From a virus, in UHGV virus genome UHGV-0363594: 7,651 bases of DNA. One strand, given 5' to 3'. Made by a program: the position numbers and the translations under genes. Below the pieces are notes generated by a model. The model was not told where the DNA came from, searched no databases, and was given only the letters and a program-made list of their open reading frames with translations. The first letter of the stretch is position 1, and each line of letters opens with the position of its first letter. Below are positions 581 through 7,651 of this stretch, piece after piece.

Positions 581-994
581 TCAGATGGTTTTCAGTATGC
601 GATCGATGTCGCCGTCATCGCCCTGGTTTCTGCCATCGTATGCCATGCCAGCTGATACGGCTTGCGGGCTGTGCATGTCCATAAAGTTTTCAAAGGCTGC
701 GGTAAGCTCTGGTGCAACCTTTGGGCGCTCCTGCTCTATGGTCATGTTCAGGATTTCACGAGCATTATCGACGCTAATACATGGCACGTTTGCCATTGCA
801 CGTAACAGCGGCTGATAGTCTTTATGCTCATGAAGCGCCATAATCGCATCAGCGCGCGGCTTGTCCTGTTCTTCCAGTTTGTTGAGTTGATATACGGCCT
901 CGTAGGTTGATAAACCTCTGTCAGCCATTGCCCGCGCTTCTGCTTTAAATTTACTCGCCAGCGGTAGCGCCATGATGCTTTCATTCGTTGCCAT
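581..994 (-). CDS. Hypothetical protein (137 aa), last gene of the capsid operon; acidic C-terminus
   Basis: ORF with a G-rich Shine-Dalgarno (AGGGGAA, 5-nt spacer) immediately after the stop of the decoration-protein gene; followed by an intrinsic terminator. No family recognised by eye. Confidence 0.6.
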   Translation of the reverse strand: MATNESIMALPLASKFKAEARAMADRGLSTYEAVYQLNKLEEQDKPRADAIMALHEHKDYQPLLRAMANVPCISVDNAREILNMTIEQERPKVAPELTAAFENFMDMHSPQAVSAGMAYDGRNQGDDGDIDRILKTI

Positions 995-1006
995 CGTTTC
1001 CCCTGC

Positions 1007-1342
1007 TTATCGCGCCAGCGGCTGAACGGATACGCCAGAACCCGCAAAGGCGGCGCATTTTTTCGCGTCAGTGTCGGCGCTCTCAGGCCAGTTAACGGCG
1101 GCAATATTGAATATCCCCGTCTTGTAACACTGTGCTGATTTCTGCTTTGACGTGTCCACAGGATACGAAGTCAGATAAACAGCCTTGCCAGATTCCTGAC
1201 CATCCCACGGCTTAAACTCGCCATTGTCCGCCAGCATCAGCGGGGTAAATTCCTGAATAACGCCAGCATCAGCGGCAAAATGTACCAGCGTCGTGGCGAC
1301 CTGCTGACTGCCTGCAAATAACTCAATGTATGGAGTGTCCAT
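1007..1342 (-). CDS. Head decoration protein, phage lambda gpD-like (111 aa)
   Basis: Length and sequence resemble lambda gpD as I recall it: TPLMLADNGEFKPWDG vs TPLMLDTSSRKLVAWDG, and a C-terminal block CYKTGIF..VNWPE..D.D.KK.AAFAGSGVSV vs FYKSGTF..VLWPE..D..KKRTAFAGTAISIV. SD GGGGGA 5 nt before the ATG. Confidence 0.85.
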   Translation of the reverse strand: MDTPYIELFAGSQQVATTLVHFAADAGVIQEFTPLMLADNGEFKPWDGQESGKAVYLTSYPVDTSKQKSAQCYKTGIFNIAAVNWPESADTDAKKCAAFAGSGVSVQPLAR

Positions 1343-1353
1343 AGAATCCCCCG

Positions 1354-2409
1354 TTAAGCAATTTTGACAGTAACAAATTTGCGAATATCTGCCGGAACCG
1401 GCTGCGGTGCGCTGTGCGTCTGCACGTACTCAATCGCCGGATCTCCGTCCTCAATCCAGTTTTTCGGGTAGTACATGTTTTGCGTTGCCCCCGTTCTTAC
1501 TGCGTCCTGATCCATAATCGCACCATAGGCCACCAGCCCTTTATTGTTGGTGTTGCCCAGGACAAGCAAATCAGGCTCAAGGAAATATTTTTCTGTGCCG
1601 TCGCTGTCAGTGTATTTGCCGGAATAGACGATAAGGGCCAGATCACCAAGATAGCCTTTAAAGCTCACCACTTCGCCCAGGTTTTTACATGCCAGCTCTG
1701 CGGCGGATTCTGAACCACGGGAGAGATCGTACAGTTCACGGAATTTTTTAAAGCTGCGTAACATGCGCCATACATCAACGCCCATAATCATGACGTTTGC
1801 GGGGCAACCTGTCTGATCTGCGTATAGCTCGATGTCATAGATTGGATCGTGTGTTTCCTTATCTGCCTCTGACCACTTTTTGCCATGTCCCTGTCTGGCG
1901 ATATTTTTACTTGGGATCTTCCAGTCGATTTCATAGCGTTCTATGCCTTCGCCCTCAATGATGTTTTTTCCGGTCGTTATCGCATTCACCGCCAGCCATT
2001 CCACGCGCGCTTTAATGGCGTTTATCTGGCGGCGCATGTTGCCAGTAATCAGGCGCATACGGCGGTAGGTAGGGTCGTTAAGCTGTGCCGGATCTTCTCC
2101 AGCCATGCGCATTATTGTTTTTAATGGATCGATTTCGTGTTTTGGCTTCATGTAGCCAGGGCGAATAATGCTTGTTTCGTACCCTTTATCGCGCTGAACC
2201 TGGCTACCAACCATAGGCGAACAAAACGCCGACATAGTGACTTCTTCAATATCCAGGTTATCTAACATGATGTCCTGTGTGTTGAATGTCGCCACGTTCG
2301 GGAAAAACAGCGCGGTAAACAGCGGACTGAATTTAAATTCCGCAATATCCTCGCGATTCAGGTACGCAAAAAGCTGGTTAGTGTTAAGTGCTATTGCTTT
2401 TACTGTCAT
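1354..2409 (-). CDS. Major capsid protein, phage lambda gpE family (351 aa)
   Basis: Strong similarity along the whole length to lambda gpE as recalled (e.g. KFSPLFTALFF vs KFDPLFLRLFF; PGYMKPKHE vs PGYVKPKHE; EDPAQLNDPTYRRMR vs EDPQNLADPAYRRRR; YPKNWIEDGDPA vs YPKNWVTTGDPA). SD GGGGGTG upstream; the start overlaps the stop of the upstream small ORF. Confidence 0.9.
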   Translation of the reverse strand: MTVKAIALNTNQLFAYLNREDIAEFKFSPLFTALFFPNVATFNTQDIMLDNLDIEEVTMSAFCSPMVGSQVQRDKGYETSIIRPGYMKPKHEIDPLKTIMRMAGEDPAQLNDPTYRRMRLITGNMRRQINAIKARVEWLAVNAITTGKNIIEGEGIERYEIDWKIPSKNIARQGHGKKWSEADKETHDPIYDIELYADQTGCPANVMIMGVDVWRMLRSFKKFRELYDLSRGSESAAELACKNLGEVVSFKGYLGDLALIVYSGKYTDSDGTEKYFLEPDLLVLGNTNNKGLVAYGAIMDQDAVRTGATQNMYYPKNWIEDGDPAIEYVQTHSAPQPVPADIRKFVTVKIA

Positions 2410-2615
2410 TATTCACCCCCGTGAACCTGATTCATACCCAGCGCCGCGCGTAAATAGGCGCGTACCTGCCAGCCTGTTGACGGCTCAACCATCGCCAGCG
2501 GATCAAGTCCTGCCGCAATGCCTGCTTTTACGTTCTGCTGGTGGCGTTCCTTGAGCGCCTTCACGATGTCGGGGCTTATGTACACCGAAACACCGCCTTT
2601 TTTCTCTTCAGCCAT
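2409..2615 (-). CDS. Hypothetical small protein (68 aa), first gene of the capsid operon
   Basis: ORF begins 30-60 bp downstream of the promoter/palindrome; SD AAGAGGAA upstream; its stop overlaps the capsid gene start, suggesting translational coupling. Function unknown. Confidence 0.55.
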   Translation of the reverse strand: MAEEKKGGVSVYISPDIVKALKERHQQNVKAGIAAGLDPLAMVEPSTGWQVRAYLRAALGMNQVHGGE

Positions 2616-2642
2616 AGTAAGAAATTCCTCTTTGACTTAAAA

Positions 2643-2699
2643 AATCATAACTGGATGTTCATCCAGTTATGATTATAATCATGATTGCATTTTGTGCAA
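2643..2699 (-). promoter_or_regulatory. Candidate sigma70 promoter of the capsid operon with an overlapping 32-bp palindromic operator
   Basis: On the minus strand: -35 TTGCAC (plus 2694-2699), 16-nt spacer, -10 TATAAT (plus 2672-2677). The palindrome AATCATAACTGGAT-GTTC-ATCCAGTTATGATT (2643-2674, 14-bp perfect arms) spans the -10 and the predicted transcription start. A second small inverted repeat TTGCA-TTTTG-TGCAA (2686-2700) overlaps the -35. Confidence 0.5.
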
Positions 2700-2780
2700 T
2701 GATATTGAGTTGCGTTGCAAATTATGAAATGATTATCCCGATCATGTGTGTCAGTGCACCAAAAAAAACCTCATATGCAA

Positions 2781-2819
2781 AAGCCCGATAAGCCCCCTCT
2801 GACCTTATCGGGCTTTTTT
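2781..2819 (+). terminator. Intrinsic terminator-like hairpin with T-run, strongest on the plus strand (possibly bidirectional)
   Basis: Stem GCCCGATAAG (2783-2792) / CTTATCGGGC (2804-2813), 11-nt loop, followed by TTTTTT (2814-2819). Four A precede the stem, so a weak minus-strand terminator is also possible. No protein-coding gene on the plus strand ends upstream of it. Confidence 0.5.
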
Positions 2820-2994
2820 ATCTGCCTGCAAAGATGTCGAACAAAAATTAACCACAATCATCATCTTTTTTGCATCAAAATAATTAAAAACAATCACTTA
2901 CGCACATGATGATGATGACGATAAAATCAAAAAAATGCGCTTCTTTCCGCGCCTCCCGCCCCGTGTTCAGGCCCACCCCGCCAGGAGGACCCGT

Positions 2995-3016
2995 AAAAAA
3001 GCCGGATTGCTCCGGC
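2995..3016 (-). terminator. Rho-independent terminator after ssb (minus strand)
   Basis: Hairpin GCCGGA-gcaa-TCCGGC (plus 3001-3016) followed on the minus strand by 6 T (plus A-run 2995-3000), 17 bp downstream of the ssb stop. Nearly identical to the terminator at 551-574. Confidence 0.75.
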
Positions 3017-3032
3017 TTCTGTCACTCGTTGC

Positions 3033-3455
3033 TTAAAACGGTATGTTATCCCCGTACGGATCATCGTTACCCGCCTGTTGTTTTGCCCTGTTCAGTGCGT
3101 CAGTAGCCTGGCCCTGCTGGCCTTTTTTACCACCTGGTCGCGCCGTTCTGGCACTGATTACGCTGTCAGCGATAACCTGCCACCCCTGCCGCGTTTCTCC
3201 GTTCTGCCCAGTCCACTGGCTGATCTGCATGTTACCCGCCACGCTCAGGAGTTCACCCTTGCGGTGCCTTTCCAGTGCTTCGGCCTGTCTGCCAAATGCG
3301 ATGACCGATAGCCATAACGTCGCCTGCCCATCCTGCGCCTGACTACATGGCAACGATACCGCCATACGTGCCAGCGTCATTGGTGTGCCCTTGCTGGTCT
3401 GTTTTACCTGCGGGTCGTCCACCAGCCGCCCGTAAGCTGCTATCTGTGCTGTCAT
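3033..3455 (-). CDS. ssb: Single-stranded DNA-binding protein (SSB), 140 aa
   Basis: The N-terminal two-thirds has an OB-fold SSB pattern (GRLVDDPQV...; W..VIAFGRQAE.....KG). A Gly/Gln-rich linker is followed by an acidic tail ending DDPYGDNIPF, matching the canonical SSB C-terminus (...DDDIPF). Strong SD GGAGAGGTGG. Confidence 0.9.
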   Translation of the reverse strand: MTAQIAAYGRLVDDPQVKQTSKGTPMTLARMAVSLPCSQAQDGQATLWLSVIAFGRQAEALERHRKGELLSVAGNMQISQWTGQNGETRQGWQVIADSVISARTARPGGKKGQQGQATDALNRAKQQAGNDDPYGDNIPF

Positions 3456-3730
3456 GATTCCACCTCTCCGGTTTTAACGTTGATGGTTGTTACCTGTTCC
3501 GCTTCGGCAATCTCCCGCTCTGTCAGCGTGGCAAAATTTGCCGCCGTCGTGGTCATGAATGCGCTTATCAGTTCGGGATGTGCTTTCGCGTATCCTTCCC
3601 CCGCGTGGCGGTCTATCGTTCTGATTGCCACCTTTAAAGCGTGCTCTGTCATGTCTAACGCGCGATATTTCGGTTCTGTTCTGTCTCTGCGTTTTTTGAG
3701 TGATTTGTTAAATCTTCCTGATGTGTGCAT
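3452..3730 (-). CDS. Hypothetical protein (92 aa) translationally coupled to ssb
   Basis: ORF whose stop overlaps the ssb start (ATGA); SD-like GAGGGT upstream of the 3730 start. Basic N-terminus. No family recognised. Confidence 0.5.
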   Translation of the reverse strand: MHTSGRFNKSLKKRRDRTEPKYRALDMTEHALKVAIRTIDRHAGEGYAKAHPELISAFMTTTAANFATLTEREIAEAEQVTTINVKTGEVES

Positions 3731-3775
3731 TTTTATTTTTACCCTCGTGTTTAAAAAGTTTTAGGTTGTGGTGCA

Positions 3776-4004
3776 CCTCCTCTACCTCTCTACCTAATCA
3801 TCTTTCATGTCAGTAATGGCGCGGCTTTCAGATGGGTAGAGGGCTTTCGTGGCCCTCTACCCATCCTCTACCCGCCCCTCACAAACGATCTTAATCATGG
3901 TAGAAGAGGTAGAGAGGTTTTATTAGCCTTCTACCTAGCCCTCTACCCACTTATCATGTTGAATAATATGCGTTTATTTCATTCAGGTAGATGGGGTAGA
4001 GGGC
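3776..4004. repeat. Iteron array, putative origin of replication: at least 10 copies of the core GGTAGAG / CTCTACC in both orientations, flanked by AT-rich stretches
   Basis: Copies at about 3779-3786, 3787-3794, 3834-3844, 3852-3862, 3864-3873, 3899-3909, 3908-3917, 3927-3936, 3938-3948, 3986-3994 and 3994-4004. Includes a perfect inverted pair GGGTAGAGGGC-tttcgtg-GCCCTCTACCC (3834-3862). AT-rich tracts at 3751-3765, 3955-3984 and 4005-4025. No plausible ORF. Lies directly 3' of the primase/helicase gene. Confidence 0.6.
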
Positions 4005-4016
4005 TTTTACAAAAAA

Positions 4017-5771
4017 TTATAAAAACGCGTCACAATCATCAGTTGTAATTGCGTTGGTCTGCGTTACTCCCTTAACTCTCCGCGTAATATATTCATGTCC
4101 GTAAACTTTTGCCGCTGGCTTCATGGCCTTGCTGAACTCAGCCACGTTTAGCGGTTTGCTCCTGCCTGCGTATGCCATAAACGCCAGATAGACGCGGTAA
4201 AGGCTGTTTCTGGTCGTGTACTTCACTGAATCGCCACCGCCGCCCATCATCAGGCCGCGTGCTTCCTCCAGAAAATTCAGGAACTGGCAAAACTCAATAA
4301 CCGGATCCGTCTGTTGCTTTATTGCCAGAGCTTCATCACCGTCGCGCTGTTCCAGTAATAAAGCCCGTGCCTTTTCAGGGTCGGCAAAATTAGCCAGCAA
4401 GCGACGGATAATTACGGGGATTTCAGCCGCGACCTTCTCCGGCAAATCCTTGTCTTTTTCGTCCTCCCTTACAATGTTGTCGAACCGGAAAATCACCCGA
4501 CGGCGTGACACACCTCCGGCCCGCTCGGTGAATATCATCGGGTTATTGTTGGTAGCCAGCACCACCGCCCTGATTACCGCCGTAAAACGCTTCTCATATT
4601 TCGGGTTTATTTCCACGGGGTCGCCGCCCGTGATTTTCTTGATGCCCGTTCCTTCGCCTGTATATTTCGGCTGGTCAGCCAGGACGATAAGACGACTCCC
4701 GACAACCTGCGCACGTCCACCAGCATCATCAAGTGAGGTCATTTCAGCGCTTACCGTGTTCTGTTTCCCTGCCAGAAGGCTGGCTATGTGCGTGAATGTA
4801 CTTTTACCGCTACCGCCCTCTCCGGTGGCCTCAATAAACATCTGCCAGTCGTACCGGTTCGCCATAATCATGTACAGCGCGGCACATATACGCATCATCT
4901 TGCGCGGGTCTTTTCCGGCTGCGTGCTCAAGCCATTTATGAAAGTTTGGCGCGTTGTCGCAGATATTCTCCCCTGGTGCTGGTGGCGTGTACTCAATGCC
5001 GTTGTGCGTGGTGATCCAGTTCTCCGGCGTGTGCGGGGAAAATTCCCCCGTTTTCAGGTCAAGCGCACCATTGGCGAACGGCAACAAATCGCCGGACGGC
5101 TCGCCCATTGGTTCGGCAATAACTTTTAACGCTTCCACGGCGTTATTGATTACGCGCTTGCTGAAAGTGGCCCTGTGCTCTGAATAGATCGCCACCATTT
5201 CGCGGCTAAGTTCCATTGTGCTGACCGGACACCATACCCCGCCGCGCCATACGTGAACGATTTCACTTTCAGGATGTACGCAAACGCCATCAAAGCGATC
5301 GGCAAGCAGCTGCGCGCGCTCACTGTCCGCCATCTGCGAAAGTTGCGCCTTTTGCTTTACCGGAAGCTCAATGACCAGACCATCAGAAAGATTCTGGCGC
5401 TCACGGGCCAGATATTCGCGCCAGTTCTGCACCTCCTGGCCGTGCATACCATCAGGATAAAAATTTGCATCCTGTACGCCTGCCGCCGCCAGCTTCTGAC
5501 CAATCGCCTTTATCATTACAGGCGCAAGATATCCGGCCCTGTATATGCGTGCTGATTTTCGGCCTTCCGGCACAATTTGCAGATTATCCAGTTCGGATAG
5601 CTGCTGCTCCCCAAGCCACACAGGAGGCTCATTATCTCCGGCCATACGCGCATCATGTTCCTGCCATTGTTTCGCGTGTGCCCAGGCATCACTACCCGCA
5701 AAAATAATGACTTCTGTTCCTTTGTGTTTTATGCCGCGTGACTGCTGTTTTACGTTCGGTGCCAGTTTCAT
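4017..5771 (-). CDS. DNA primase/helicase (584 aa), phage/plasmid P4-alpha / D5-like type with SF3 helicase domain
   Basis: Walker-A P-loop GEGGSGKST in the C-terminal half, with downstream hydrophobic strand and acidic motif (LIVLADQP) typical of D5/P4-type primase-helicases. The N-terminal segment TEVIIFAGSD may be TOPRIM-like (tentative). Start overlaps the stop of the upstream ORF (ATGA). Confidence 0.85.
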   Translation of the reverse strand: MKLAPNVKQQSRGIKHKGTEVIIFAGSDAWAHAKQWQEHDARMAGDNEPPVWLGEQQLSELDNLQIVPEGRKSARIYRAGYLAPVMIKAIGQKLAAAGVQDANFYPDGMHGQEVQNWREYLARERQNLSDGLVIELPVKQKAQLSQMADSERAQLLADRFDGVCVHPESEIVHVWRGGVWCPVSTMELSREMVAIYSEHRATFSKRVINNAVEALKVIAEPMGEPSGDLLPFANGALDLKTGEFSPHTPENWITTHNGIEYTPPAPGENICDNAPNFHKWLEHAAGKDPRKMMRICAALYMIMANRYDWQMFIEATGEGGSGKSTFTHIASLLAGKQNTVSAEMTSLDDAGGRAQVVGSRLIVLADQPKYTGEGTGIKKITGGDPVEINPKYEKRFTAVIRAVVLATNNNPMIFTERAGGVSRRRVIFRFDNIVREDEKDKDLPEKVAAEIPVIIRRLLANFADPEKARALLLEQRDGDEALAIKQQTDPVIEFCQFLNFLEEARGLMMGGGGDSVKYTTRNSLYRVYLAFMAYAGRSKPLNVAEFSKAMKPAAKVYGHEYITRRVKGVTQTNAITTDDCDAFL

Positions 5772-6067
5772 TTTTTACCCCTGAATGCGTTAATCATGTT
5801 TTTCATTTTCTGAATATTTGCCCGTGCCTTTGCGTTGCTGGTGGGCACGTTATGCGGCGCGGTCTGTACCAGAGAAAAATCACGCCGGAACTGATAAACA
5901 GGCATCACGCAATCATATTCGTAACCTTCACGGCGGTAGGTTACGCGCCGTTCTTCCACGCCCTTAATCATTACCGTGCCGCCGTACTGGTCGCGGTAAA
6001 TATCACCGCGCGTAAATTTAGGGTGAGTGTTGCCACTGGCAGTTAAGCCAGAATATTTAAGTTTCAT
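5768..6067 (-). CDS. Hypothetical protein (99 aa), translationally coupled to the primase/helicase
   Basis: ORF directly upstream of the primase with ATGA stop/start overlap; basic, Tyr/Arg-rich. No family recognised. Confidence 0.5.
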   Translation of the reverse strand: MKLKYSGLTASGNTHPKFTRGDIYRDQYGGTVMIKGVEERRVTYRREGYEYDCVMPVYQFRRDFSLVQTAPHNVPTSNAKARANIQKMKNMINAFRGKK

Positions 6068-6307: not shown

Positions 6308-6529
6308 TTAATCCCCGTCCGTCGTTTTTCTTAAAACAACTTCTGTCACGAAATCAGCATAGTTAGCGGCAATATCAAGAATATTTAGCCCTGTATCCCT
6401 GTGCTCATCAGTGCAAAGAAAGAAAAAAGCCACCCGCATAATTTCAGATATTGACGAAAGCGCATCAGCCGCATCATCAGGAAAGCCGGAAAATTCCTGT
6501 TTCAGGGAATTAAAACGATCATCACGCAT
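6308..6529 (-). CDS. Hypothetical protein (73 aa with the start chosen here; the ORF extends to 6577)
   Basis: I prefer the internal start at 6529 (MRDDRF...): it is preceded by a G7 Shine-Dalgarno-like run and overlaps the upstream stop by only 8 bp. The 6577 start lacks an SD and would overlap the upstream gene by 56 bp. Confidence 0.45.
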   Translation of the reverse strand: MRDDRFNSLKQEFSGFPDDAADALSSISEIMRVAFFFLCTDEHRDTGLNILDIAANYADFVTEVVLRKTTDGD

Positions 6530-6743
6530 AACCCCCCCCATTTTCACAATCAGCAATAAGAATATTTTTAGCGTCATTCAGCGACCGCGTGGCGGTGTAT
6601 CTGATACATTCCAGGGCGAACTGTGTCCGGTCTTTCTGTTCTTCTCCCTGCGCAAGCTCTGCCGTGCATTCAATATCAATAAGCGCGTGCATCAGCGTAG
6701 TGAGTGCGGCGGCGGCTGCGTCCGGTGTGGTTTTATTGCACAT
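6522..6743 (-). CDS. Hypothetical protein (73 aa with the start chosen here; the ORF extends to 6773)
   Basis: The start at 6743 (MCNKTTPD...) is preceded by a strong SD AGGAGGT with a 5-nt spacer and overlaps the end of Icd-like gene A by 11 bp. Ala-rich N-terminus, several Cys. Confidence 0.5.
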   Translation of the reverse strand: MCNKTTPDAAAAALTTLMHALIDIECTAELAQGEEQKDRTQFALECIRYTATRSLNDAKNILIADCENGGGYA

Positions 6744-6906
6744 GGCACACCTCCTGACGAATACGGGCGACAAAAATCAGATGTGCGTGCGGCAGCTGGG
6801 CGCGGGCTTCGCGCTCAGTGGCAGCGGTAACGGTGTAAATATCAATGCTGCTGTGGTGGCACTGCATAAAGCGCCAGACAAAGTAAGGGCGTGCGGATAC
6901 AGCCAT
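6733..6906 (-). CDS. Small Icd-like protein, paralog A (57 aa from the internal start; the ORF extends to 7041)
   Basis: Shares FVWRF, TEREAR and F(V/A)ARIRQ motifs with the 7192..7389 ORF. The start at 6906 is preceded by GGGAGCC, similar to the RBS of paralog B. The motif pattern resembles host cell division inhibitor Icd-like proteins as I recall them (memory-based, unverified). Confidence 0.55.
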   Translation of the reverse strand: MAVSARPYFVWRFMQCHHSSIDIYTVTAATEREARAQLPHAHLIFVARIRQEVCHVQ

Positions 6907-6992
6907 GTGAAAGGCTCCCAGATGAATTTTAAGGAGTCTCGCTACTACGCTGTCAAACATGGTGGCGAGACGTAACAGGGTTGACAGACTGG

Positions 6993-7199
6993 TCATCTGG
7001 AAACCAGCGAGCACAAAGGCTCCCCCGTTACGCCCCGCCATAATGCGGGTATGGGTAGGTTTACGGACACAAAAAACCGCTTATCGGATGTGGGCGGCTG
7101 TCCGCCAGATGTATTCAGGCTGTCAAACCCGGTCGCCATGTGGGCGACGGGGGAAGCATACAGCCCCGTGATAATTTTTTGCAAGCGGTTTTTACGCAT
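6993..7199 (-). CDS. Hypothetical protein (68 aa with the start chosen here; the ORF extends to 7241)
   Basis: The start at 7199 (MRKNRLQ...) has an AGGGG SD-like element and overlaps Icd-like B by 8 bp. It occupies the same relative position as 6522..6743 in the duplicated unit but shows no obvious protein similarity to it. Confidence 0.4.
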   Translation of the reverse strand: MRKNRLQKIITGLYASPVAHMATGFDSLNTSGGQPPTSDKRFFVSVNLPIPALWRGVTGEPLCSLVSR

Positions 7200-7389
7200 G
7201 ATGTGACCCCTGGCGAATACGGGCGGCGAATACAGCAACACAACCGGACGGGCAACGGCTACGCGCTTCGCGTTCCGTCCAGGCGGTTACGTGGATGATT
7301 TGAGATTCTCCGGCACTCAGTGCCAGAAAACGCCACACAAAGGCCGTTTGTGTGTGTACAAGGTGTGGTATATGATTTACGGCAACCAT
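7192..7389 (-). CDS. Small Icd-like protein, paralog B (65 aa); first gene of the leftward early operon
   Basis: SD GGAG 5 nt upstream of the ATG. Motifs AFVWRF...TEREARSR...VFAARIRQG are paralogous to 6733..6906. Confidence 0.6.
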   Translation of the reverse strand: MVAVNHIPHLVHTQTAFVWRFLALSAGESQIIHVTAWTEREARSRCPSGCVAVFAARIRQGSHHA

Positions 7390-7417
7390 AACGGCTCCTA
7401 GTTTACGTTGTTGGTTA

Positions 7418-7452
7418 GAAGCCCCGTTACTGCTCCAACAGTGCGGGGCTTC
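7418..7452 (-). other. GC-rich stem-loop in the predicted 5' leader of the Icd-like operon
   Basis: 9-bp perfect stem GAAGCCCCG (7418-7426) / CGGGGCTTC (7444-7452) with a 17-nt loop. It is not followed by a U-run on the minus-strand transcript, so it is probably not a terminator. Confidence 0.4.
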
Positions 7453-7490
7453 GTCGTTTCAATTGCTGAATTGCATGTATCAGCACTTGT

Positions 7491-7544
7491 GGTATTCACA
7501 TTACATTTATGTGAATACCATTTCAAGTCTTTTTTGGTATTCAC
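7491..7544. promoter_or_regulatory. Operator-like perfect inverted repeat plus an extra half-site in the divergent promoter region
   Basis: GGTATTCACAT-tacattt-ATGTGAATACC (7491-7519) with a third half-site GGTATTCAC at 7536-7544. A candidate minus-strand promoter overlaps it: -35 TTGAAA (plus 7521-7526) and -10 TGTAAT (plus 7500-7505), 15-nt spacer. Confidence 0.5.
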
Positions 7545-7587
7545 TTTTGTATTACACTGCATCCCGTTATTAATGGGAGGTGCAAAC

Positions 7588-7651
7588 ATGTCCAGGAGTT
7601 CTGTTAACAATAAGTCACAGCAACTGAATGCCAGATTTCCACATGAAGTAG
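7588..7651 (+). CDS. 5' end of a plus-strand gene (partial, runs off the window), divergent from the Icd-like operon; possible regulator
   Basis: ATG at 7588 is preceded by a strong SD GGGAGGTG with a 6-nt spacer. The open frame MSRSSVNNKSQQLNARFPHEV continues to the window end. Its function cannot be assigned from 21 residues. Confidence 0.5.
   Translation, partial: MSRSSVNNKSQQLNARFPHEV

Follow-up and report, generated by a model that had tools for sequence, protein, structure and literature searches.

A C4 antisense RNA cassette and an additional upstream Icd paralog in the predicted early-control region of a P4-like satellite

We analysed a window of 7,651 nucleotides (nt) from the virus genome UHGV-0363594, and in particular the stretch at positions 6733-7389, in which the original prediction had seen two small genes for proteins resembling the host cell division inhibitor Icd, arisen by tandem duplication at the head of an early operon. 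This observation was real but was read too narrowly: the stretch is a C4 immunity cassette of the P1/P4 type with an extra, old Icd paralog at the head of the transcript. The C4 RNA and its a1/b1 and a2/b2 targets, which define the unit, had been overlooked. Together with its leader, the stretch is likely the immunity and early-control region of a capsid-encoding satellite related to phage-inducible chromosomal islands (PICI) and P4, built on the design of P1 immI and P4 seqA-CI-seqC.

The C4 RNA and its target sites between the two genes

The two genes, which we call icdA and icdB, are read from the minus strand and are separated by ~285 nt. This gap holds an antisense-RNA gene and target sites, and is not a diverged copy of the upstream DNA. 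The Rfam scan gave a C4 family (RF01695) match of 72.6 bits (gathering score 45; E = 3.9e-13), which spans the full model (positions 1-87 of 87), and the mature RNA, as mapped from P1, would lie at about 7039-6961 on the minus strand. The upstream targets of C4 were recognised as a c4-a1b1 element (RF03163; 46.8 bits, gathering score 46.7), an assignment backed by the fact that the a1 and b1 sites annotated in P1 align with it. A weak isrK match was found at 7148-7070 (29.7 bits), and matches to RsaJ and Spy1186876 were discarded, as their scores were far under the thresholds. Members of the C4 class carry two loops, a' and b', directed against a1 and b1 as well as against a2 and b2, with b2 lying over the ribosome-binding site (RBS) of the following icd gene; they are further characterised by a constitutive promoter, a transcript common with the target, and processing to ~77 nt. 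The two-loop pairing is present in the window, with b2 on the RBS of icdB (Table 1).

When the b' loop was scanned over a 1-kb leader transcript, its best partner was b2 (11 bp, -14.5 kcal/mol) and the second best was b1 (-10.6 kcal/mol), and the RBS of icdA was absent from the top partners in this transcript. Control of icdA by C4, which might be expected from the resemblance of its RBS to that of icdB, was ruled out on this ground.

The pairing was also examined across 71 IMG/VR loci with the c4 core CCAGTCTGTCAACCCTG in common. In an alignment of satellites, P1-like phages and P4, b1, b' and b2 change together in at least 10 specificity types, with constant flanks. For 24 distinct b' loops, the cognate loop was the top binder of its own icd RBS region in 20/24 cases and the second in the other 4/24; the pairing energies were about -10 to -17 kcal/mol for cognate and about -6 kcal/mol for non-cognate pairs. 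Every b2 site ends in GGAG(C/G)C, and this is why the RBS strings of icdA (GGAGCC at 7398..7393) and icdB (GGGAGCC at 6919..6913) look alike, a similarity that had been rightly noticed earlier. None of the 24 loop types of the fetched loci belonged to a C4 RNA cognate to the icdA RBS (loop ...CUAGUUU...). Two pattern scans of IMG/VR yielded a sole match, a c4-like RNA at ~3330-3440 of L088; this metagenomic viral contig of 37.5 kb is unrelated, and the a' site of the RNA differs. The loop of this RNA, UUCCUAGUUU, would match the icdA RBS AAACUAGGAG, and we treated this as chance, probably a coincidence.

At the DNA level, positions 7136-6948 of the window share 78% identity with the phage P1 c4 region. 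The record of P1 has the order P2c4, P1c4 (both promoters), a1, b1, c4 RNA, a2, b2, icd and ant1; b2 is described there as 'repression of icd ant translation', icd (73 amino acids, aa) as 'apparently required for expression of ant', and ant1 overlaps the icd stop codon. The window thus resembles immI of P1 and P7 in its order (promoter, a1, b1, C4, a2, b2, icd and an overlapping next gene), in its DNA, the 78% identity running over b1-c4-a2, in the a sites, which are identical (UUGACAG), in the location of b2 on the icd RBS and in the preserved core of the Icd protein. On the other hand, the b' loop and b sites are of another specificity (UUUCCAGAUGA in the window, UUUCACUAACG in P1), and icd is followed by ant in P1 but by small open reading frames (ORFs) of unknown function and then replication genes in the window. 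The immunity promoter is preceded by the extra icdA in the window and only by the C1 operator and promoter P2c4 in P1, and the window belongs to a satellite whereas P1 is a plasmid prophage.

In P4, an isrK/seqA-like element (8692-8615) is followed by the C4/CI RNA (8507-8420) and by an Icd-like domain of 73.9 bits. This domain is encoded by the end of the old 'cI protein' ORF, which runs to 8168, 8 nt into epsilon, and whose last 65 residues begin at 8365. We take this Icd-like ORF to be kil, a gene of 65 aa that lies within eta, a longer ORF. The nested kil/eta arrangement was reportedly described by Forti et al. in 1999, with translation of eta said to prevent termination at timm. The Rho-dependent terminator timm of P4 occupies positions 8365-8209 of X51522 (PMC3177188) and therefore lies inside the Icd-like ORF. 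In P4-like prophages, the IsrK/C4 pair makes up the immunity system known as seqA/CI (PMC3632133, PMC4825925). As in P4, a C4-family RNA with upstream and downstream targets would control a satellite replication operon in the window, the RNA is followed by an Icd-like gene that overlaps its downstream neighbour (kil/epsilon in P4), and the eta ORF has its likeness in a long in-frame ORF through the RNA region of the window's relatives. The two differ in the leader of the cassette, which is of the isrK type in P4 and of the P1 (a1b1) type in the window, in the RNA itself (only 58% identity between the window C4 RNA and P4 CI), in the upstream gene, which is orf88 (vis) in P4 and an icd paralog in the window, and in the eta-like frame, which is broken in the window. 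By its position and sequence, icdB is the counterpart of P1 icd and P4 kil.

Table 1. Coordinates of the features of the window, in order along the predicted early transcript
Feature	Position	Strand	Details
Operator-like repeats	7490..7547		Palindrome TGGTATTCACAT / ATGTGAATACCA (7490-7501, 7509-7520) around -10; third copy 7532-7547
Candidate upstream promoter of early operon	7498..7526	minus	TTGAAA (7526-7521), 17-nt spacer, TAATGT (7503-7498)
icdA leader hairpin	7418..7452	minus	GAAGCCCCG ... CGGGGCUUC; no U-tract after; z = -3.7
icdA	7389..7192	minus	65 aa, Icd-like; Shine-Dalgarno (SD) sequence GGAGCC at 7398-7393
68-codon ORF	7199..6993	minus	ATG overlaps icdA stop (ATGCGTAA, 7199-7192); ends inside C4
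Candidate immunity promoter Pc4	7155..7184	minus	TTGCAA (7184-7179), 18-nt spacer, TATGCT (7160-7155)
c4-a1b1 element	7161..7112	minus	Upstream C4 targets; RF03163
a1	7126-7120	minus	UUGACAG; placed via P1 annotation
b1	7111-7105	minus	CAUCUGG; placed via P1 annotation
T6 run	7071..7076	minus	T7 in most relatives; in terminator-like tail of a1b1/IsrK-like element
C4 antisense RNA	7045..6958	minus	RF01695
b' loop of C4	7003-6993	minus	UUUCCAGAUGA
a' of C4	6987-6981	minus	CUGUCAA
a2	6956-6950	minus	UUGACAG
b2	6925-6915	minus	UCAUCUGGGAG; covers icdB SD (GGGAG)
icdB	6906..6733	minus	57 aa from ATG behind GGGAGCC (6919..6913), Icd-like
Next cistron	6522..6743	minus	73 aa; ATG overlaps icdB stop by 11 nt (ATGTGCAATAA)
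DUF4222 protein	5768-6067	minus	Matched directly to Pfam
Primase-family protein	4017-5771	minus	Position and length correspondence with near-identical E. coli relative
Single-stranded DNA-binding protein (SSB)	3033-3455	minus	Position and length correspondence with E. coli relative
Major capsid protein	1354-2409	minus	Position and length correspondence with E. coli relative
Head decoration protein	1007-1342	minus	Position and length correspondence with E. coli relative

IcdA, IcdB and the cassette arrays of their relatives

Both proteins matched the NCBIfam profile NF033153 (phage_ICD_like, 'host cell division inhibitor Icd-like protein'; cut-off 25 bits), IcdA with 64.7 bits and IcdB with 55.1 bits, and thus fall into one family, not into unrelated ones; for reference, P1 Icd scored 52.6 bits and the P4 kil region 73.9 bits. 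In BLASTP, 22/44 residues (50%) were identical between IcdA and IcdB (E = 2e-11), and the motifs FVWRF, TEREAR and F(A/V)ARIRQ are common to both. According to these matches, the similarity is far above chance and the reading frames are right, so that the tandem pair of small genes with shared motifs, as originally predicted, was confirmed within its predicted limits. The mechanical ORF of icdB reaches back to an ATG at 7041, giving 102 aa, and this extended ORF is on record for the 7,651-nt window alone.

Pairwise identity is 43-47% for IcdA and IcdB, 41-47% for IcdB and P1 Icd, and 31-37% for IcdA and P1 Icd. In an alignment of the three proteins, the residues F, W, R, F, V, A, T, E, E, A, R, P, F, A and R are invariant, and both IcdA and IcdB align with the FtsZ-binding core of P1 Icd (residues 12-51), in agreement with the Icd-like identity proposed for them earlier. 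P1 Icd binds FtsZ and blocks formation of the Z-ring, and residues 12-51 are its minimal FtsZ-binding and antibacterial core (PMC11897509). We infer that both IcdA and IcdB would delay host division once the operon is on. Because IcdA and IcdB are about as similar to each other as IcdB is to P1 Icd, we judged the paralogs to be old. Over the cores, the ratio of nonsynonymous to synonymous substitution rates (dN/dS) was 0.29 for the A-type and 0.30 for the B-type, with no sign of diversifying selection overall, contrary to the arms-race diversification that had been suggested. IcdA and IcdB are thus best described as old paralogs, both apparently kept as proteins by purifying selection.

The exact IcdA protein is present on at least 1000 contigs, where it is labelled Icd-like. 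A Pfam search gave no match to IcdA or IcdB, the Protein Data Bank held no sequence relative of the Icd proteins, and a tblastn search of phage records with IcdA returned one satellite-like record only and retrieved neither P1 nor P4. A profile scan of genome contigs with the Icd alignment found a single Shigella locus, these proteins being too short for the method; this locus proved informative, as a recombinant that lacks c4. The 73-aa cistron after icdB matched phrog_5146 and phrog_2512, both families of unknown function.

Among 73 c4 sites examined, 47 had an icd downstream only, mostly on large contigs and in the P1-like arrangement. Another 18 of the 73 had an Icd-like ORF upstream as well, always ending 202-203 nt before the c4 core, on contigs of ~4-17 kb with the exception of one of ~60 kb. 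The full window-type unit was found in 68 of 5426 complete E. coli genomes, and A-type and B-type keep their positions across these 68 genomes and about 18 IMG/VR satellites. Many enterobacterial satellites thus share the arrangement.

Rfam scans of the relatives revealed cassettes composed of target leader, C4 and icd, arranged in series, with 1-3 per element. There is one cassette in the window and in L011, L033, L035, L065, L067, L001 and L091, two cassettes with a period of 477-479 nt in L015, L023, L027, L039, L045 and L050, and three in L034. At ~845-1880 of L034, the three tandem C4 RNAs (1090, 1432 and 1789) have different b' loops, and each is followed by an icd-like start. In elements with two cassettes, the leader of cassette 1 is of the isrK type and its icd starts with MATTPTL (P4 kil: MATTLTP), and cassette 2 is of the a1b1 type, as in the window. 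Their second RNA, C4(2), is 79% identical to P1 c4 and only 67-68% identical to the neighbouring C4(1), and the array is therefore not a fresh local duplication. These elements also carry a 5' icd fragment, MVAVNHIPHLVHTQTAFVWRFLAL, with the same N-terminus as the window IcdA, which opens a ~185-aa ORF that runs through isrK-C4(1) into icdA (phrog_29966). In L075, the promoter region of the window is followed by the fragment, isrK, C4(1) and icd, with no second cassette. The literature searched, mostly outside subscription journals, held no description of tandem C4-icd cassettes or of an extra upstream icd.

Hybrids of icdA and icdB, joined at the ARIRQ codons and with the c4 cassette gone, were found in Shigella (L003) and E. 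coli (H58). The single icd at 2939-3234 of L003 (Shigella flexneri CP182556) and that of H58 (E. coli FORC_042) have the body of IcdA and the tail of IcdB. Such a gene looks like the product of a deletion by recombination between icd repeats, leaving an element without RNA immunity. Elements of the O55:H7/O157 type have icdA as their only icd and no c4. As both intermediate and derived states of the cassette occur, the icd repeat that had been noticed earlier appears to be a real recombination substrate.

Candidate promoters, the eta-like reading frame and the surrounding satellite

The candidate immunity promoter Pc4 begins 8 nt past the icdA stop codon. Its hexamers align position by position with the annotated P1 promoter P1c4 (former P51b, TTGACC-N17-TATAGT); the same alignment column holds TTGCCT-N17-TATAGT in P4, and equivalents are present in satellites without an upstream icd. 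If Pc4 is active, as its homologs are, then C4 would be made independently of icdA, and icdA would be placed on a separate upstream transcript. The sole terminator-like match of the default scan, at 7354-7334, lies inside icdA; such a number is expected by chance, and the match was rejected.

The transcript of icdA would be driven by the upstream promoter at 7526-7498. The arms of the operator palindrome around it are 12 nt long and 100% complementary, and the repeat motif of the promoter/operator region is TGGTATTCAC. Beside the operator, a divergent gene of the YlcI/YnfO family starts at 7589 on the plus strand, and the operator region is 99% identical to E. coli loci whose divergent gene is annotated as the YlcI/YnfO family. 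In the window, icdA is the first ORF behind a divergent promoter/operator region. In relatives, at least six unrelated promoter/operator modules stand ahead of the same leader and icdA start, at an unchanged distance, several of them with clearer, near-consensus hexamers (e.g., TTGACA-N17-TACTAT) and repeated operators of their own. This supports the proposed place of icdA at the head of the early operon, in line with the original prediction. The modules compared were those of the window (7490-7547), L001, L003, L035, L039 and L091. The comparison suggests that the modules are interchangeable and that repressor specificities can be swapped. The strong leader hairpin of icdA likewise has in relatives a counterpart of different sequence at the same place, just ahead of the conserved UCUAACCAACAACGUAAACUAGGAGCC, and may act in RNA stability, processing or regulation.

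In L090 and L091, elements of the int-alpA type, a 594-nt pseudogene at 1757-2350 upstream of icdA is labelled 'Icd-like, partial' by the Prokaryotic Genome Annotation Pipeline (PGAP). Its translation gave no match to NF033153, and an opposite-strand ORF that ends near the promoter looks like the real gene, possibly that of a repressor.

The 68-codon ORF that starts at the end of icdA gave no family match in the window. In seven distinct relatives, the distance from the same ATG to the ATG of icdB is exactly 294 nt, and this frame has no stops, as compared to 1-7 stops in the other two frames. The eta-like ORF of these relatives runs in frame through a1b1 and C4 into icdB, yielding a 153-aa product that ends in IcdB, and the relatives with an open frame cover five or more b' specificities. 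The nested arrangement of P4 kil/eta is thus found in seven distinct relatives but not in the window. In the window and in L067 the distance is 293 nt, and in both a T6 run takes the place of T7; with one nucleotide fewer, the eta-like ORF is out of frame with icdB, has three stops in this frame and, in the window, stops at 6993. The T6 may be a real variant or a homopolymer error. The 68-codon ORF is most probably a frameshifted remnant of an eta-like ORF. We hypothesise, by analogy with P4 eta, that C4 immunity could be overridden by ribosomes that translate through the RNA cassette on transcripts of the upstream promoter.

The satellite backbone extends over positions 581-6067 of the window, on the minus strand. 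A near-identical E. coli relative, inserted in tqsA, adds an integrase, a helix-turn-helix regulator and a small terminase; the window stops short of both ends of the element. Capsid-forming satellites are defined by an integrase, an AlpA-type regulator, a primase/replicase and capsid genes, with ~10-18 kb between attachment sites, and from its gene content the window appears to be part of a capsid-encoding PICI-like element. In the tqsA relative, a PerC-family regulator and small ORFs are located between the capsid module and the SSB gene; the window has ~420 nt (2616-3032) without a sizeable minus-strand ORF between the corresponding genes.

Proposed control, its alternatives and its meaning

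By homology with P1 and P4, we propose the following course of events. Pc4 would transcribe a1/b1, the C4 RNA, a2/b2 and icdB, and C4, processed from this transcript, would use its a' and b' loops to bind a2 and b2 and mask the SD sequence of icdB. With icdB untranslated, Rho would stop transcription, and the replication genes (for the DUF4222 protein, primase and SSB) would remain off. Thus icdB would serve as a translation-gated leader whose product, when made, is a probable FtsZ-directed division inhibitor. The old paralog icdA, upstream of the immunity promoter and not a target of C4, would be the first cistron of the operator-controlled promoter at ~7526-7498. When this promoter fires, IcdA would be made, and ribosomes coupled through the ATGCGTAA overlap would enter the a1b1/C4 region. 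In most relatives, the eta-like ORF could take them in frame to icdB, as in P4, and C4 immunity would thereby be overridden; in the window, the T6/T7 difference would truncate the eta-like ORF inside C4. The tandem icd pair may be the remnant of an array of modules, each made up of target leader, C4 and icd, in which the coding repeats of icd would act as recombination joints for the gain and loss of cassettes.

Several points weigh against this proposal. Both predicted promoters score just 8/12 against the consensus, and a stricter default promoter scan of positions 6700-7651 found none. With an inactive Pc4, C4 would depend on transcription from the upstream promoter, which would couple its expression to that of IcdA. 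The a1b1 element clears the gathering score of RF03163 by just 0.1 bit. The break of the eta-like ORF in the window means that the bypass mechanism is inapplicable here, that the base call is wrong, or that the ORF is dispensable, and the fixed 294 nt of the relatives could reflect constraints on RNA spacing and not translation. The relatives of the O55:H7/O157 type, which have icdA and lack c4, point to an icdA that is independent of the RNA cassette. Finally, division inhibition by IcdA and IcdB is extrapolated from P1 Icd, the sole one assayed.

We considered whether the pair could derive from a recent duplication in situ of a ~450-bp icd unit, followed by arms-race divergence into two parallel inhibitors, with a spacer that has merely diverged. 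This is very unlikely, even though the paralogs are spaced 456-459 nt apart, whole cassettes repeat in relatives at the period given above, and the segment from WRF to VTA is variable among B-types. In the alignment of the two units only the coding cores were alike, and no ~450-bp segmental duplication is visible in the window: the spacer is another functional element, a high-scoring C4 RNA with its targets, and not a decayed duplicate. The repeated DNA reported at ~6755 and ~7210 does exist (22 nt, 86%), but it lies inside both coding sequences and not downstream of the genes; as the reverse complement of the (V/A)ARIRQ codons, it counts the protein motif twice and is not independent evidence. 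The distance between IcdA and IcdB, which is about as large as that between IcdB and P1 Icd, the greater similarity of C4(2) to P1 c4 than to C4(1), the dN/dS of ~0.3 for both paralogs and the conservation of the arrangement across many elements all speak against a recent event as well.

Alternatively, icdA may be a recombination scar, composed of the N-terminus of the 5' icd fragment (A0) and an A-type C-terminus, left by a deletion of isrK-C4(1); it would then be a mere translated leader that fends off Rho, and its protein would have no role of its own. The two-cassette relatives do show A0, with its first ~24 residues as in IcdA, followed by isrK-C4(1) and an A-type icd; L075 has A0, isrK-C4(1) and icd behind the promoter region of the window, and deletions between icd repeats do occur. 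Yet the spread of the exact IcdA sequence, found on 1000 contigs or more, the dN/dS of the A-type core, the retention in IcdA of the residues invariant with P1 Icd, and the elements of the O55:H7/O157 type in which icdA stands alone argue for selection on the IcdA protein itself, and make a scar without function quite unlikely. We also find it unlikely, although less firmly so, that the Icd-like proteins are chiefly effectors of abortive infection or superinfection exclusion, in an operon triggered by an incoming phage, and that they would act to stop the host cell and not in the service of satellite replication. Growth arrest upon expression of a phage accessory gene, for which an Icd-like gene was needed, has been reported (bioRxiv 10.1101/2023.04.06.535777), and the 153-aa ORF annotated in relatives (eta-like/icdB) agrees with the description of that gene. 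That locus, of ECOR61, may belong to the same family; however, an effector function is compatible with a C4 switch, to which it would add an output. The reported growth arrest may thus be a further output of the C4 switch.

Beyond the C4-controlled operon proposed here for the window, we tentatively put forward a wider idea, which is possible but for which we would not claim an even chance. Icd genes would be portable joints by which C4 cassettes of individual b' specificity are stacked, swapped and dropped, and long eta-like ORFs would carry ribosomes across the whole series, so that every RNA lock could be overridden at once from a single promoter under protein repression. The window would then have lost its first lock, leaving icdA under the repressor only.

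The locus has been annotated in other terms. At this position in E. coli genomes, PGAP already labels both genes Icd-like, and in relatives also the 153-aa ORF, and Icd-like genes have been listed among the common accessory genes of P4-like, PICI and capsid-forming PICI satellites (PMC13612085). In satellites annotated with NF033153, the Icd genes appear as independent accessory genes and the C4 RNA is unmarked. For the RNA region itself, the annotations are a long N-terminal extension of Icd, an 'ash family' pseudogene and a 'transcriptional repressor' (PHROGs, P4 RefSeq). Protein features cover the C4/IsrK RNA at 8168-8584 of phage P4 (L076), where the label is 'cI gene product / transcriptional repressor', at 8652-8990 of L075, at 9664-10125 of L001, and in PHROGs 1743 and 6196. 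These labels seem to be inherited from a period in which the RNA nature of P4 CI had yet to be recognised.

Taken alone, the window shows mostly known biology in a slightly new arrangement. Nevertheless, a pair of 'accessory' genes can be re-read as the core on/off switch of widespread phage satellites of E. coli and Shigella, and a systematic misannotation of the C4 RNA region as protein is exposed. Three systems that have been studied separately, namely P1 immI, P4 immunity and the Icd-like genes of PICI, are thereby linked. The switch also offers a possible account of how the Icd-like cell-death effector reported in an E. coli prophage stays silent. If the cassette-array idea is true, it would provide a route by which the immunity specificity of satellites diversifies, at least 24 b' loop types being present in the fetched loci, and the resulting combinations of RNA immunity could determine the coexistence or mutual exclusion of satellites and P1-like phages within a cell.

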